In this document: piece by piece, positions 12,538 to 62,906 of the stretch | Layout of the letters: every line of letters starts with the position of its first letter | Numbering within the stretch: position 1 is the stretch's first letter | Source: an uncultured Roseburia sp. | GTDB lineage: Bacteria > Bacillota > Clostridia > Lachnospirales > Lachnospiraceae | Length of the DNA stretch: 64,000 nucleotides | Assembly: GCA_947564465.1 (NCBI GenBank) | Contig: CANOCV010000010.1 | Location: 6,027-70,026 of the forward strand | Direction of reading: 5' to 3' | Notes under the pieces: generated by a model | Databases searched by the model: none | What the model was told of the DNA's origin: nothing | The model's input: only the letters and a program-made list of their open reading frames with translations | Translations under genes and position numbers: made by a program

Positions 12538-12609
12538 GGTTCGTTGGTCAAGCGGTCAAGACGCCGCCCTCTCACGGCGGAAACACGGGTTCGATTCCCG
12601 TACGGACTG
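12538..12609 (+). tRNA. tRNA-Glu (anticodon CUC)
   Basis: GGTTCGTTGGTCAAGCGGTCAAGACGCCGCCCTCTCACGGCGGAAACACGGGTTCGATTCCCGTACGGACTG folds as a cloverleaf. Anticodon stem CCGCC/GGCGG with loop CT-CTC-AC, T arm GGGTTCGATTCCC. No encoded CCA. Confidence 0.9.
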
Positions 12610-12637: not shown

Positions 12638-12709
12638 GGTTCATTGGTCAAGCGGTTAAGACGCCGCCCTCTCACGGCGGAAACAGGGGTTCGATTCCCC
12701 TATGAACTG
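12638..12709 (+). tRNA. tRNA-Glu (anticodon CUC), second copy
   Basis: Near-identical cloverleaf exactly 100 bp downstream of the first. Differences are paired changes in the acceptor and T stems. Confidence 0.9.
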
Positions 12710-24568: not shown

Positions 24569-24822
24569 AAAAAAGCTCCGTCCCCAATTAAAAGGGACGA
24601 AGCAAAATCTCCGCGATACCACCCTGATTCCCGAAAACAGTCTCGGACTCTCATTATCATGCGTAACGTGCATAAAACGTCACAGGCTACTTTATTCACC
24701 CATGCTGCTCCGGTGCGAAATTCAACTCTTACCTTACTTCAGGAAAGCTCTCAGCCGCCTACTCTCCCTCTCTGTGAAATGTATAAGAATCTACTGAACA
24801 CTTTCAACGCATTTCTCTGCTG
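24569..24822 (-). promoter_or_regulatory. T-box riboswitch leader (Phe specifier) with its promoter, controlling pheST
   Basis: Minus strand, in order: promoter TTGATG-N17-TGgTATGAT (24829-24857); stem I AGAGAGGGAGAGTA; candidate specifier UUC within GAATTTCGCA (about 24717-24719); T-box GGGTGGTATCGCG (24612-24624); terminator CGTCCC-TTTTAATT-GGGGACG plus GAGCTTTTTT (24569-24603). Confidence 0.88.
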
Positions 24823-28099: not shown

Positions 28100-28335
28100 T
28101 TGTATCGCTTATCTTAGGCAAATTCATTTATTTCTTTCGTACATTTTAAAATTCTAATCTTTCGTCTAAATAAATCTTAACCTTGGTACACTTATCTTAT
28201 GCTTGTCTTTCGAATCTTATGCCTTTCTTTGGTATCCTGCGTATGCTTACATCTTACTGTCTTTTGTCATTTGTATAATATCTTTTGTATTGTAATTCTT
28301 CTCTCTTTTGTATACAAATATAGTTCTTTTGTAAA
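28100..28335. repeat. degenerate periodic repeats with a 20-23 bp period (plus strand ATCTTATGC..TCTTTCG / TCTTTTGTA)
   Basis: CTTTTGT starts at 28261, 28282, 28305 and 28326. ATCTTAT/ATCCTGC/ATCTTAC start at 28194, 28214, 28234 and 28251. Similar units occur at 28105-28140. Confidence 0.7.
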
Positions 28336-28602
28336 TCCCAAAATGCCGTTTCCTGCAATTTTGACTCCTAGCAAAGCTAGGTGGGTAACCGCAACCAACA
28401 TTCTGCCTTCCGCTGCAAACGACGGCCTGACATCCTGCTGACAATGTAGGAATCCCATGAACGTAAATGTAGGTTCAAAATAGCAGGGTATCGAACACCC
28501 CAGGTAATTTACTAATTAGATTATACTCTATTATTCCACATATTTCAACGTAAAATTCACGTTACTATTTTATAATTTTTGCCGAGTTGGGCATTTTTTT
28601 CC

Positions 28603-31838: not shown

Positions 31839-33209
31839 ATGACTACAAATAAGTTTTGCGAAATAACGCCTGAGATTTTGGAATTATCCGAACTCAGCAA
31901 AAATGCTTCCTATATTCCGCCGGAGCTTTACTCAAAATATGATGTCAAGCGCGGCCTGCGTGACATAAACGGAAAAGGAGTTCTTGTCGGATTGACCGAG
32001 ATCTCAGATGTTTGTTCTACCGAGGTTATAAACGGCGAAACCGTTCCGGCACAGGGAAAACTATTTTACCGCGGCTATAATGTGCAGGATCTTGTACGTG
32101 GAATTGAACCGGACAGCCATTTTGGTTTCGAGGAGTGTACGTATCTGCTGTTGTTTGGCAGGCTTCCTTCCAGAAAGGAACTCTCTAATTTCTGCAAAAT
32201 CCTTTCGGAATACCGAACGCTTCCTACCAGTTTTGTCCGTGACATCATTATGAAGGCTCCGAGTAAAGATATGATGAATACACTGGCAAGGAGTGTCCTC
32301 ACCCTATACTCTTATGACGATAAAGCCGACGACATTTCGCTGCCGAACGTTTTAAGACAGTGTCTTCAGCTAATCAGCCTGTTTCCGCTTTTATCTGTAT
32401 ATGGTTATCAGGCCTACCGCCACTATCATGACGGAGCCAGCCTGTTTATTCATTCACCTAAGCCTGAACTTTCCACTGCCGAGACAATTCTGCATATCTT
32501 AAGACCTGACAGCAGCTACACCCCGTTAGAAGCGAGATTACTTGATATTGCTCTGATTCTGCATATGGAACACGGCGGAGGAAATAACTCTACCTTTACC
32601 ACGCACCTTGTCTCCTCATCCGGAACCGATACATATTCGGTAATCGCCGCGTCGCTCGGCTCCCTGAAAGGGCCAAAACACGGCGGCGCCAATATCAAGG
32701 TCGTACAAATGTTTGAGGATATGAAACAGGTCGTGCACGACTGGACCGATGAAGAGGAGGTCGGCAATTATCTGCGCAGATTGCTTCACAAAGAAGCCTT
32801 TGACCACGCCGGGCTGATATACGGTATGGGTCACGCCGTATACTCTCTCTCCGATCCCCGGGCTGTTATCTTCCGCTCTTTCGTAGAAAAGCTTTCCAAA
32901 GAAAAGGGCTACGACAAGGAATTTGCGCTTTACAGTATGGTCGAACGCCTTGCTCCGCAGATTATTGCCGACGAACGCAAAATATATAAAGGCGTCAGTC
33001 CAAATGTAGACTTCTTCAGCGGTTTTGTCTATCATATGCTTGATCTTCCGCTGGAGTTATATACACCGATTTTTGCAATTGCACGTATCTCCGGCTGGAG
33101 CGCACACCGGATGGAGGAAATTGCACACAACGGCAAAATTATGCGCCCTGCATATAAAAATATCAGTGATCACAAGGAATATATTCCGCTTGACAAGAGA
33201 GAATCGTAA
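31839..33209 (+). CDS. citrate (Si)-synthase family enzyme (citrate or 2-methylcitrate synthase)
   Basis: 456 aa ORF. ILHMEHGGGNNSTF, GPKHGGAN, GMGHAVYSLSDPRA and NVDFFSG citrate synthase signatures. GAAGGAGGA RBS. Confidence 0.88.
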   Translation: MTTNKFCEITPEILELSELSKNASYIPPELYSKYDVKRGLRDINGKGVLVGLTEISDVCSTEVINGETVPAQGKLFYRGYNVQDLVRGIEPDSHFGFEECTYLLLFGRLPSRKELSNFCKILSEYRTLPTSFVRDIIMKAPSKDMMNTLARSVLTLYSYDDKADDISLPNVLRQCLQLISLFPLLSVYGYQAYRHYHDGASLFIHSPKPELSTAETILHILRPDSSYTPLEARLLDIALILHMEHGGGNNSTFTTHLVSSSGTDTYSVIAASLGSLKGPKHGGANIKVVQMFEDMKQVVHDWTDEEEVGNYLRRLLHKEAFDHAGLIYGMGHAVYSLSDPRAVIFRSFVEKLSKEKGYDKEFALYSMVERLAPQIIADERKIYKGVSPNVDFFSGFVYHMLDLPLELYTPIFAIARISGWSAHRMEEIAHNGKIMRPAYKNISDHKEYIPLDKRES

Positions 33210-60487: not shown

Positions 60488-61153
60488 CTATACACCGTTT
60501 TTTACCCTTTTCACATTCCCGGCACAAACGGGGCACCCCGAACGCTTCTTGGATGTTCTTGAAAATACCGCCGCCTGCCAAACGTGCCCTTCCTCACACT
60601 GCCACCAGATACGTTTTCCGCTTCCCGGCCGTATATGCCTGGGAGACAACTCATTGTTCAGTCCCGGATGCCACTGCTTCGCCACCTCCGGATACATCGT
60701 TTCAAGATCATTAAAACCCGGCCATGCCTTTTTTCCGCTGCAATACGGACATGCCTGCCCCCGCAGCGAACGATTTTCCACTGTGGCCTGCCACTCATGT
60801 CCCAAAGCACATTGCCACCAAATTTTTCTGTCACTCCCCGCCGTAACATCAGAGGGCTGTAATTCTCCGTTTTTAGCCGGATGCCACTCTTTTGCCACCC
60901 TCGGATTGACTGTTTTTAAATCGTTAAACCCACTCAGCGCTTTTTTGTTCGCACAATAAGGACAGCCGCGCCCCCGCAGCATACGATCCTTCACCGTACT
61001 TTGCCATATATGTCCTTTTTGGCACATCCACCAAACTTTTTTGTGGGACGCATAGCTGATGTCCTCTATTTTTTCGCTTCGGTTTCTCTCCAAGTCCCAT
61101 TCGGCGATTAAATATTCCATATGATTTGTCTCACAATACTCAACGGCGTTCAT
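60488..61153 (-). CDS. protein made of three tandem treble-clef zinc-ribbon repeats (DUF4379-like)
   Basis: Three repeats of about 58 aa: EW...N.....P..(S)..K.WW.C..GH.W...V..R.....CP.C.....(GFNDL). Start probably at MNAVEY (GAGGGA RBS). Confidence 0.65.
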   Translation of the reverse strand: MNAVEYCETNHMEYLIAEWDLERNRSEKIEDISYASHKKVWWMCQKGHIWQSTVKDRMLRGRGCPYCANKKALSGFNDLKTVNPRVAKEWHPAKNGELQPSDVTAGSDRKIWWQCALGHEWQATVENRSLRGQACPYCSGKKAWPGFNDLETMYPEVAKQWHPGLNNELSPRHIRPGSGKRIWWQCEEGHVWQAAVFSRTSKKRSGCPVCAGNVKRVKNGV

Positions 61154-61173
61154 AACTATTCCCTCATCATACA

Positions 61174-61195
61174 CAATAGTTTTTCTATTGCGAAC
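61174..61195. repeat. left inverted repeat / candidate recombinase core site
   Basis: CAATAG-TTTTT-CTATTGCGAAC is the exact reverse complement of 62793-62814 (22/22). Confidence 0.9.
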
Positions 61196-61232
61196 TTTTT
61201 GTCTGTAAATATTCTTATTTTAAACAACTGTA

Positions 61233-61261
61233 ATGGTATCACTACTTCAATTAAAAGTCAA
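61233..61261 (-). promoter_or_regulatory. candidate promoter inside the cassette reading into the polysaccharide operon
   Basis: Minus strand reads TTGACT (61256-61261), a 17-nt spacer, then TACCAT (61233-61238). Confidence 0.35.
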
Positions 61262-61343
61262 CTTTTCAGAATAATTTTCAACAATTTCCCAAAATCTTTG
61301 TTGCTATTCGGTCACTTATATAGTATTGAGTGATTTGACGGAC

Positions 61344-61524
61344 GCCATTTTGCATCCAAACTTCATTTTATAGACGAGGATAACGCGCCGCCGGACTAAC
61401 CGCTAACATTGACTAAAGGTCTCTCAGGAAAGCCTTCGAGACCAAGTCAAAGTAGGCGGTGGATTCCGCCTCTGCTAAGAACATCCTCTCATTGTCTTTA
61501 AAATGAAGTTGGATGCGGGATGGC
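61344..61524 (+). ncRNA. 181-nt highly structured element (6S-RNA-like architecture, or a recombinase-associated RNA); identity unproven
   Basis: Closing helix of about 35 bp (61344-61381 with 61483-61524, small bulges). Apical hairpin TTGACT-AAA-GGTCTC..AGG-AAAG-CCT..GAGACC-A-AGTCAA (61409-61450). 3'-side hairpin AGGCGG-TGGATT-CCGCCT (61454-61471). Plus-strand promoter TTGTTG-N17-TAGTAT ends at 61328. Confidence 0.4.
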
Positions 61525-61625
61525 TGTATCTCAAAACATGCCATTTAAAGCACGGTATTCGTGGTCAAAAAAATGGTAGATAATTGATTAGAAGTTATAC
61601 CAAAAATGAAGAGGAGGAAACAGAA

Positions 61626-62729
61626 ATGCCAAGAAAGGGCGAAAATATCAGAAAGCGAAAAGACGGAAGATGGGAGGCACGCTATTTTAAAGGACGGGAT
61701 GAACATGGACGCATTCGTTACGGATATGTTTATGCAAAGACATATCGACAAGTACGCGAAAAGAAAACACATATGATTCAGCAGATGGTCAAAAAAGATG
61801 TTTGCATCCCTATTGAATCGGAGATCAATACGATTGAATGTTTAAGCCAGATATGGATGAGGGATAAGAAAGAACGGGTTAAGCCAAGTACATACGCAAA
61901 TTATGAATCAATTATCATGAAGCATATTGAGGGTGTATTCGAGAAGAATCTGAAACAAATTACGAAAAAGGATATCTATTCGTTTGTCGAATCTCTGGCA
62001 AAGAAGGAGCTGCAGGCATCGACAATACGCTCAATCACAGATGTTCTCCGCTATATTTTAAGAAAAGGCAGCCAGATGGGAATAATCGAAAATGAGATTG
62101 CGGAGTGCTGCATCTACCGTAGCGGTAGAAATACTGTCCGCGTTTGCAGCGGGGACGACAGAGAAAAAATTGAGCAGATTCTCTTTTCAATTGATAATCT
62201 GTTTGCTACGGGGATTTTGTTGATGCTTTCCACAGGGATCCGTGTCGGGGAGTTATGCGGTATTCGCTGGGAAGATATCAATTTTGAAGAAAAAACCTTT
62301 CGTATCATTAGAACAATCCAGCGCATAAAAAATGATGGAAATGAGAGGGAAAAGGGAAAAACTTATATTCATATCGGAATACCCAAAACAGAAACATCTT
62401 TACGTGCTATTCCGATACCAACAAAGCTGTATTCTTTATTGCAAAAGTATAAGAGCCTTCCTTCACATTATCTTCTGACAGGGAGTTCTTCCTGCATGGA
62501 GCCGCGAAATGTGCAAAAGCGTTTTGAGACAATTCTTCGTCGAAATCAAATAACACATTATAACCTGCATTCGCTCCGTCACGGATTTGCTTCGACAGCC
62601 ATTGAAAAAGGCATTGACTGTAAAACGGTATCGTCTATTTTAGGGCATTCATCCACAAAGATTACACTGGATTTGTATGTGCACAGCAGTCGAAAAATGA
62701 TGCAGGATTGTGTCGATGCTATACTTTAA
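61626..62729 (+). CDS. tyrosine site-specific recombinase/integrase with N-terminal AP2-like arm-binding domain
   Basis: MPRKGENIRKRKDGRWEARYFKGRDEHGRIRYGYVYAKTYRQV N-terminus. Catalytic region TGIRVGELCGIRWEDI (Arg), HSLRHGFAS (H-x-x-R), LGHSSTKITLDLYVH (His, Tyr). GAGGAGGAAA RBS. Confidence 0.9.
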   Translation: MPRKGENIRKRKDGRWEARYFKGRDEHGRIRYGYVYAKTYRQVREKKTHMIQQMVKKDVCIPIESEINTIECLSQIWMRDKKERVKPSTYANYESIIMKHIEGVFEKNLKQITKKDIYSFVESLAKKELQASTIRSITDVLRYILRKGSQMGIIENEIAECCIYRSGRNTVRVCSGDDREKIEQILFSIDNLFATGILLMLSTGIRVGELCGIRWEDINFEEKTFRIIRTIQRIKNDGNEREKGKTYIHIGIPKTETSLRAIPIPTKLYSLLQKYKSLPSHYLLTGSSSCMEPRNVQKRFETILRRNQITHYNLHSLRHGFASTAIEKGIDCKTVSSILGHSSTKITLDLYVHSSRKMMQDCVDAIL

Positions 62730-62792
62730 TAAATAGTCAGAAGAAGTGGTCATTTGCCAAAACATACTTGCGTTTGTATTTATTTTTCCATT

Positions 62793-62819
62793 GTTCGCAA
62801 TAGAAAAACTATTGCGAAC
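62793..62819. repeat. right inverted repeat: full palindromic core-type site, also a terminator hairpin for the integrase gene
   Basis: GTTCGCAATAG-AAAAA-CTATTGCGAAC followed by TTTCTTTT. Confidence 0.9.
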
Positions 62820-62861
62820 TTTCTTTTATAAAATATATATGCGTCAAGCATTCTCAAACAC

Positions 62862-62906
62862 GAAAAATCCCGAAGAATTCCTGTTGAAACAGAATCCTTC
62901 GGGACT
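62862..62906 (-). terminator. intrinsic terminator of ilvC
   Basis: Minus strand reads TCCCGAAGGATTC-TGTTTCAACAG-GAATTCTTCGGGA followed by TTTTTCG. Confidence 0.85.

Follow-up and report, generated by a model that had tools for sequence, protein, structure and literature searches.

Promoter invertons are familiar from the fimS switch with its recombinases FimB and FimE, the capsule promoters of Bacteroides, the RecV switches of Clostridioides difficile, and the Hin and Gin segments, which carry their own invertase. Hairpins that act on mRNA or on RNA processing include the sib site of phage lambda, through which RNase III retroregulates int, the stem-loops in the 5' leader of IS200, and the RNase III stalks of the ribosomal RNAs (rRNAs). 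Tyrosine recombinases can use folded single strands as sites, as with integron attC and the attP(+) hairpin of CTX phage, and miniature palindromic repeats are known as miniature inverted-repeat transposable elements (MITEs), ERIC, RUP and Correia elements. In the IS110 and IS1111 families a structured bridge or seek RNA is encoded in the 5' non-coding end, adjoining the recombinase gene (PMC11208160, PMC11208158). Here we analyse a 64,000-nt stretch of DNA from an uncultured Roseburia sp. (contig CANOCV010000010.1 of assembly GCA_947564465.1, positions 6,027 to 70,026), referred to below as the window, in which a 181-nt imperfect hairpin stands in the non-coding leader of a tyrosine recombinase gene, inside a cassette bounded by inverted recombination core sites.

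The cassette resembles the promoter invertons in its inverted core sites, its predicted outward promoter, its polysaccharide operon target and its occurrence in both orientations in natural populations; what sets it apart is a tyrosine recombinase carried within the 1.6-kb segment that it inverts. The hairpin comes on top of this and, to our knowledge, is found in no described inverton of this kind. It shares with lambda sib, the IS200 stem-loops and the rRNA stalks a long double-stranded stem adjoining a recombinase gene, a sequence that is free as long as it pairs, and a proposed action on mRNA processing or stability, and with the rRNA processing stems it also shares a variable stalk around a conserved interior. 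Unlike lambda sib, it is located upstream rather than downstream of the gene; unlike the IS200 hairpins, it is much larger and leaves the ribosome-binding site (RBS) uncovered; and it has no sequence relationship to any of the three. The parts of the hairpin are as follows, "relative" denoting an uncultured Roseburia metagenome-assembled genome (MAG) described below.

61344..61524, plus strand: the whole hairpin element, a rod of five helices and 65 pairs; the orthologue folds alike
61344..61375, plus strand: 5' arm of the outer 32-bp helix, the variable stalk; about 50-65% identity to the relative, with 95% of cells paired
61494..61524, plus strand: 3' arm of the outer helix, with the same divergence and pairing results as the 5' arm
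61376..61493, plus strand: the sequence-constrained core, with the inner helices and asymmetric conserved internal loops; about 92% identity to the relative

An earlier note on this DNA, made by reading the letters, had proposed a 181-nt structured element upstream of the tyrosine recombinase, and this element is real. Folded as RNA, its plus strand has a minimum free energy (MFE) of -84.3 kcal/mol, compared with -44.0 +/- 3.7 for 200 dinucleotide shuffles (z = -10.8), and 0/200 of the shuffles matched its stability; folding with DNA parameters gives z = -7.8. The favoured fold, by both MFE and centroid, is a continuous rod of five stacked helices with 65 predicted pairs and internal loops between the helices. 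The helices of the core are GAGGAU/AUCCUC, CGGA/UCCG, ACCGCU..ACAUUGAC/GUCAAAGU..GGCGGU, GGUCUC/GAGACC and the apical AGG-AAAG-CCU; the internal loops that separate them are large, asymmetric, non-complementary and conserved, and about 45 nt per strand of the hairpin are left unpaired. The individual segments that the earlier note had picked out all lie where it had placed them (GCCAT/ATGGC at 61344/61520, the 24-nt arms, GAGGAT/ATCCTC, GCCGCC at 61387-61392, GGCGGT at 61455-61460 and the apical hairpin at 61409-61450). The way it had put them together, as a closing stem around an open 27-nt 5' strand and a 3'-side hairpin, is not the one that folding favours: forcing the 3'-side hairpin AGGCGG-UGGAUU-CCGCCU carries a penalty of 4.5 kcal/mol for the window's copy and 6.8 for that of the relative, and in the rod GGCGG is paired with CCGCU (61401-61404 region) with a probability >0.99. 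The note had also suggested a switch or pseudoknot, with GCCGCC pairing with GGCGGT; such use of the competing CCGCC segments was rejected, the alternative being 4.5-6.8 kcal/mol worse.

P0002, which has 80% identity to the recombinase and is its closest homologue, is from the uncultured Roseburia MAG and is found on 22 metagenome contigs, and an orthologous element with the same fold (z = -13.1) is present at the same place in these contigs. In an alignment of 182 columns between the window and the Roseburia copies, the core of about 117 nt differs at only 9 positions. Taken in 30-nt bins, the core has 83-97% identity, compared with 47-67% in the outer arms and the adjoining spacers; this puts the core level with the outward-promoter block (87-97%) and above most of the recombinase gene (~79%). 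A core that stands so far above its own stalk and spacers, at the level of the promoter block, is indicative of purifying selection in place. Uncompensated differences in the 3' arm of L100, a 5x contig of the relative, cluster with other probable errors and were set aside. No start-to-stop reading frame within the element is conserved between window and relative, and ARAGORN gave no match on the element. A 23-codon minus-strand frame in the element was considered and rejected, its stop being lost in the relative and its RBS spacing unusable.

The outer 32-bp helix shows a different pattern. In the single species pair available, 9 of its pairs are changed on both sides and 2 on one side, and 95% of cells remain paired; for these two sequences, none of 500 shuffles reached this pattern, and sliding the partner strand by 1-3 columns left only 0-2 both-side changes. 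Changes of the compensatory kind, for which the earlier note had advised a test, are seen in the outer helix of this one pair and not in the inner helices, which are invariant between the two sequences. From the conservation of the core and the compensatory changes in the stalk together, we conclude with high confidence that the structure of the hairpin is under selection.

The earlier note had also raised the question of whether homologues of this recombinase always carry the element upstream, and they do not: it is lacking in all of the more distant homologues examined (68 loci). The window and the Roseburia orthologue have recombinase leaders of 430 nt and about 430 nt, respectively, compared with 184-255 nt in 15 other cassettes of the family, and subtracting the element from the window's leader leaves 430 - 181 = 249 nt. 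The short leaders of the relatives, together with this remainder, identify the hairpin, on the evidence of leader lengths, as a lineage-specific insertion in the recombinase leader. In all, the element is not found in 16 more distant cassettes of the recombinase family, including that of a 52% homologue whose 378-nt leader is AT-rich and unstructured (z = +0.24). Searches with nhmmer using the core, and with a covariance model, R1, over the window and 70 loci, gave matches only in the window and the Roseburia contigs. Rfam contained no family matching the element, whether the window was scanned at gathering score or the cutoff was relaxed to E<=10 for stretches of 1.85 kb and of 221 nt. As judged by these searches, the element is a structured motif outside the known Rfam families with a very narrow distribution of two lineages.

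An insertion of this kind could be selfish or neutral, that is, a MITE-, ERIC- or RUP-like palindrome that landed in the leader of the common ancestor, does not serve the switch, and has arms kept complementary by template-switching during replication. Such repeats are likewise imperfect palindromes of 100-200 bp in intergenic or leader regions that can fold as RNA, and the clean insertion of ~181 nt relative to the rest of the family, the rod-like palindrome, the narrow distribution and the lack of an Rfam family are all in keeping with this explanation. Within the sequence covered, the copy number speaks against it: the element, including its arm sequence, is single-copy in the 64-kb window, no second copy is present in 311 kb from 68 other loci around recombinase homologues, blastn against plasmid and phage collections gave no match, two IMG/VR pattern scans gave 0 matches, and a pattern scan of JGI metagenomes gave 8 matches, all unrelated chance ones in high-GC DNA. 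No direct repeat flanks the element as a target-site duplication. The least conserved part of the element is its termini and the interior is conserved, the reverse of the MITE pattern, and in the orthologue at the same site the core is 92% identical next to neighbouring spacers at ~50%, which argues for selection in place. We therefore regard a selfish or neutral insertion as rather unlikely.

A near-perfect duplex of 32 bp that drifts in sequence and yet stays paired, around a constrained interior, is what one expects of a stalk from which a functional RNA is processed; the RNase III stems around the rRNAs and the control of int by lambda sib are examples. The strand on which such an RNA would lie is suggested by the positions in the alignment that are not Watson-Crick pairs. 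On the plus strand these are five G.U pairs and no A.C (U6-8.G175-177 in the window, G28.U155 in the relative and U61.G112 in both); U6-8 with G175-177 in the outer helix form three G.U wobbles on the plus strand only. This modest bias points to a molecule that is single-stranded and of plus sense. The covariance model R1 scores the element at 203 bits on the plus strand and 54 bits on the minus strand, in accordance with the non-Watson-Crick positions being all G.U. We lean somewhat towards the hairpin acting as an RNA on the plus strand.

Two promoter-like features in the leader bear on how such an RNA might be made:

61298..61326, plus strand: weak promoter-like site TTGTTG-17-TAGTAT, predicted, with a start about 10 nt before the hairpin
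61561..61584, plus strand: direct repeat GTGGTCAAAAAAATGGTAG and an extended -10-like TGgTAGATAAT, just 5' of the RBS; leaders of 10 cassettes compared

The first of these had been noted before, and its sequence is present as described, with coordinates that were off by 1-2 nt and a score that falls under the threshold of the promoter scan. The relative has a counterpart, TTCACA-17-(TG)TTGAAT, a few nt away (read by eye), so that promoter-like hexamers lie 5-17 nt 5' of the hairpin base in both species. No terminator or U-tract was found directly 3' of the hairpin in a sequence scan, and a plus-strand transcript would therefore run on into the recombinase gene. On this basis our tentative interpretation, to which we give somewhat less than even weight, is that the hairpin is a plus-strand leader RNA which modulates expression of the recombinase and in which a constrained core sits on a variable stalk. 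The weak promoter at 61298-61326 would start a long recombinase transcript, the first ~190 nt of which would fold into the rod. The 32-bp outer helix, free in sequence while its pairing is kept, would be a double-stranded stalk of the kind that RNase III cuts, and the core of ~117 nt would be the functional part, to be bound where it is or else freed as a small RNA. In this way the hairpin would set the level or the stability of the recombinase mRNA and, through it, the rate at which the cassette switches. Transcription, strand, processing and the effect on the recombinase are what we infer here from the fold and its surroundings, and regulation of the recombinase in cis is the part we hold most loosely, as possible but short of probable. 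If it is correct, a phase-variation switch for surface polysaccharide in a gut commensal has acquired an extra control of its rate, and an unclassified RNA motif joins the short list of RNAs tied to site-specific recombinases.

Several observations weigh against this interpretation. The two strands of the hairpin have about equal fold energies, in the window's copy (-83.3 kcal/mol on the minus strand as RNA, z = -8.3) as in that of the relative. The plus-strand promoter is weak, under the scan threshold and not conserved in position. The extended -10 conserved in the family lies 3' of the hairpin, at 61574-61584, and the main recombinase mRNA may therefore not contain the hairpin at all; the TGgTAGATA that the earlier note had proposed as the recombinase's own promoter is indeed present at 61574-61582, with the extended -10 conserved in the family and its role as a promoter putative. 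No Rfam family matches the hairpin. There are only two independent sequences, and all of the covariation comes from a single helix compared between a single pair of species; the four inner helices do not vary, and their support is thermodynamic. The 5:0 strand bias in G.U pairs has a p of roughly 0.03-0.06, as the events are not all independent. Finally, template-switch repair, which acts in quasi-palindromes, could be a source of seemingly compensatory changes without any selection on RNA.

Some of these points favour an element that works as DNA: an architectural or accessory site that would affect synapsis or promoter activity. It might provide extra arm-type sites to which the N-terminal domain of the recombinase or a host factor binds, or fold into a hairpin or cruciform between the two divergent promoters. 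Within the invertible segment the hairpin does have divergent promoter regions to either side of it, its two strands fold equally well, the evidence for a plus-strand promoter is weak, and inverted copies of AGTCAA and GGTCTC in the core resemble the direct repeat GGTCA...TGGTCA found by the RBS in the family. This resemblance extends only to 5-6-mers, however, and 16 relatives with equally palindromic core sites invert, or are built to, without any hairpin. The ~45 unpaired nt per strand and the large asymmetric loops would make extrusion of a cruciform energetically unlikely, judging from the fold with DNA parameters; conserved asymmetric loops are not needed by a plain DNA palindrome, and would make such extrusion from duplex DNA costly. 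A protein platform would also leave the complementary drift of the 32-bp arms and the G.U-only bias unexplained. We consider a DNA-level role unlikely on balance, at something like a one-in-several chance.

The folded single-strand sites of attC and attP(+) offer a further comparison, since here too an imperfect palindrome stands beside a tyrosine recombinase and structure is in part conserved over sequence. Unlike attC, the element has no R and L boxes (GTTRRRY) and no pattern of extrahelical bases, it is longer, and the recombinase beside it uses duplex core sites. By inspection, the base of the stem reads GCCAT/ATGGC in the window and GCCGGC in the relative, and the 3' side is without GTTRRRY.

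The plus-strand RNA that we favour could also be independent of the recombinase, a small RNA acting in trans and carried in the cassette by chance, including a functional 6S-like decoy of RNA polymerase. This was the conservative identification in the earlier note, and the likeness to 6S RNA (RF00013) is evident in the size of ~180 nt, the long closing helix, the internal loops, the apical stem and the Firmicute genome; a promoter-like site lies just 5', and stand-alone RNAs typically combine a conserved core with a closing stem that varies. Neither RF00013 nor any other Rfam family matched at E<=10 over 221 nt, and the search for another 6S gene that the note had advised found one: a canonical, full-length RF00013 match (70.7 bits) at 28331-28509 on the minus strand, dissimilar to the hairpin. 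The favoured fold is a near-continuous rod rather than a stem with a large open central bubble, no terminator or U-tract follows the hairpin, and, unlike 6S RNA, the element is inside a mobile-type invertible cassette and known from two lineages only. The identification as 6S is thus not upheld, and a trans-acting small RNA of any kind appears improbable. As a separate candidate comparison, a global alignment of the hairpin with the 6S gene at 28331-28509 scored within the range of shuffles, and a relationship between the two was rejected.

The arrangement had reminded the earlier note of the IS110 bridge RNA; a guide of this type would lead the tyrosine recombinase to its sites. The likeness to the IS110 and IS1111 RNAs consists of a structured non-coding element beside a recombinase gene in a mobile-type unit. 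The sole support for it here is the place in the 5' non-coding region of the recombinase inside the element that moves, together with a conserved core and variable segments. Those variable segments form a helix and not loops. No 13-mer or longer word is shared between the hairpin and the core sites or the rest of the window, and shared 11-12-mers are at chance level with none at the core sites, so that the site-complementary guide loops of IS110 and IS1111 have no counterpart. The core sites are classic palindromes of the kind read by proteins, with an asymmetric spacer; the enzyme is an ordinary one of the Phage_integrase fold, and not DEDD/RuvC-like, with no extra domain compared with its relatives; and the 16 distant homologous cassettes without the element mark it as dispensable across the family. 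We think a guide RNA extremely unlikely.

The third identity that had been proposed is a nested inverton, in which recombination between the ~30-bp arms would turn the 118-bp core around. With arms of 24-32 bp and a 117-bp interior, the element is similar in size to the RecV switches of Clostridioides difficile, and several short-read contigs break inside the hairpin. These breaks are scattered and lie at 3-9x coverage, as expected of a hairpin in short-read assembly, and the core has one orientation relative to the recombinase in the 7 Roseburia contigs that cross it and in 1 that covers half of it, all of them consensus contigs and two of them flipped for the whole cassette. The arms are ~50-65% identical between species where the core sites are identical, they are unlike the half-site CTATTGCGAAC of the core sites, and the interior is itself a hairpin. 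As the earlier note had said, there is no promoter inside the 118-bp segment: the promoter scan found none. A nested inverton is accordingly very unlikely. Of the interpretation made in that note as a whole, a selected, structured and probably RNA element in the non-coding leader of the recombinase survives, and the three identities that it had named do not.

Returning to the leader RNA, we also considered a more specific version, in which the core would be cut from the stalk as a dedicated RNA partner of the switch, for instance by binding the recombinase or its mRNA and so deciding how often, or in which direction, the cassette inverts. This is a long shot; if true, it would be the first RNA-controlled tyrosine-recombinase inverton. 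In the literature on RNA-associated tyrosine recombinases or on self-inverting cassettes of Lachnospiraceae we found nothing specific.

The cassette in which the hairpin stands has the following parts:

61174..61200: left recombination core site, (aca)CAATAG-TTTTT-CTATTGCGAAC, a perfect inverted repeat with the right site
61233..61261, minus strand: outward promoter P_out, TTGACT-17-TGaTACCAT, predicted, facing the polysaccharide operon through the left core site
61626..62729, plus strand: tyrosine recombinase of 367 aa, the cassette's invertase (Pfam Phage_integrase 6e-25, Phage_int_SAM_3)
62793..62819: right recombination core site, GTTCGCAATAG-AAAAA-CTATTGCGAAC, a palindrome of 27 nt that runs into a stretch of T and resembles a terminator on the plus strand

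The cassette, at 61174-62819, is bounded by a perfect 22-nt inverted repeat (61174-61195 / 62793-62814), as the earlier note had recognized. Each core site consists of the half-site CTATTGCGAAC, an inverted half-site and, between the two, an asymmetric 5-nt spacer that reads TTTTT at the left site and AAAAA at the right one, and the core sites are identical between the window and the Roseburia relative. The recombinase is the only integrase in the window; the solved structures nearest to it are XerC-like ones and Tn1549 Int, and it has no domain beyond those of its relatives of 361-371 aa. To the left of the cassette is a minus-strand polysaccharide operon encoding a DUF4379 zinc-ribbon protein, a DegT aminotransferase and a Bac_transf sugar transferase, and to the right is the 3' end of ilvC. 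The P_out block has 87-97% identity to that of the Roseburia relative.

Contigs of the relative carry the cassette in both orientations. In L026, L029, L031 and L033 it has the orientation seen in the window (A), and L027, L034 and L100 have the same genes flanking a cassette that is inverted in its entirety (B). At the junctions of the A and B contigs the outer half-sites remain with the flanks, which places the crossover inside CAATAG-N5-CTATTG. The cassette is thus a real inverton that switches in nature and encodes its own recombinase, as observed in the 80%-identical Roseburia orthologue rather than in the organism of the window, and we propose that it phase-varies the polysaccharide operon.

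The genes on either side have features of their own. The first gene of the operon (60488-61174, minus strand) encodes three tandem DUF4379 treble-clef zinc-finger repeats, visible as a 213-bp periodicity in the DNA with ~70% identity between repeats. Its listed GTG start overlaps the left core site, and the true start is likely the ATG at 61153, as indicated by the Roseburia orthologue. On the other side, just past ilvC, a strong stem-loop with a T-run lies on the minus strand at 62855-62905 (CCCGAAG...CTTCGGG TTTTT); by its sequence it probably ends ilvC transcription ahead of the cassette.

Cassettes of this type are widespread among relatives. More distant homologues of the recombinase, with 25-52% identity, were found in Blautia, other Lachnospiraceae, a Vagococcus MAG and IMG/VR contigs. 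The build of the family is constant: two palindromic core sites, their sequence specific to the lineage, enclose a 184-255-nt leader, the recombinase and, ahead of the second site, ~60-120 nt; the half-sites of the 52% homologue are identical to those of the window. A second natural inversion pair is given by the Blautia loci L046 and L048, which have opposite orientations. A near-consensus TTGACA-17-(TG)TAnnAT that reads outward, on the strand opposite to the recombinase, is the best-scoring promoter-like site in 17/17 cassettes, and the -10 of these predicted promoters ends 25-54 nt from the left core site (17/17 cassettes). Plus-strand promoters for the recombinase are weak and inconsistent across the family. 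The direct repeat GGTCA-N7-TGGTCA stands directly 5' of the recombinase RBS in the window and in L002, L004, L005, L008, L045, L046 and L050, often with an extended -10, and L008 has CGCCGTCAG twice at this position. The repeat at 61561-61584 is possibly the recombinase promoter, an autoregulatory operator or a set of arm-type sites, to go by its sequence and position.

The cassette family is a better-supported and more solid result than the hairpin, and is a variant of well-known inverton biology. Its order of core site, strong outward promoter, tyrosine recombinase and second core site offers a simple signature by which phase-variable loci of gut Firmicutes can be found from sequence, in settings beside capsule operons, between two alternative glycan operons, or ahead of TnpB-like genes.

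Two of these settings were seen in individual relatives. At L036 (3400-5700), the locus of the 52% homologue, the cassette is located between two divergent glycosyltransferase operons, each of which starts with an epimerase paralogue, and these paralogues give rise to 57-72 nt of extended inverted similarity outside the core sites. Inversion there would redirect the outward promoter between two glycan operons, a toggle rather than an ON/OFF switch. In the Blautia-type loci L045-L050, whose recombinases are 44-46% identical to that of the window, the first gene past the outward promoter is TnpB-like (Pfam Cas12f1-like_TNB and Aq_aa04), followed by a UDP-glucose dehydrogenase. A phase-variable TnpB-like gene beside capsule genes may be an exapted RNA-guided regulator.

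Elsewhere in the window, a T-box leader is present at 24590-24816 on the minus strand (113.8 bits), and two tRNA genes lie on the plus strand at 12538-12609 and 12638-12709. A 20-nt inverted repeat (32760-32779 / 32953-32972, 90% complementary, with 173 nt between the arms) is found inside an open reading frame of 456 aa (31839-33209, plus strand); it could be due to chance or could be an intragenic inverton.

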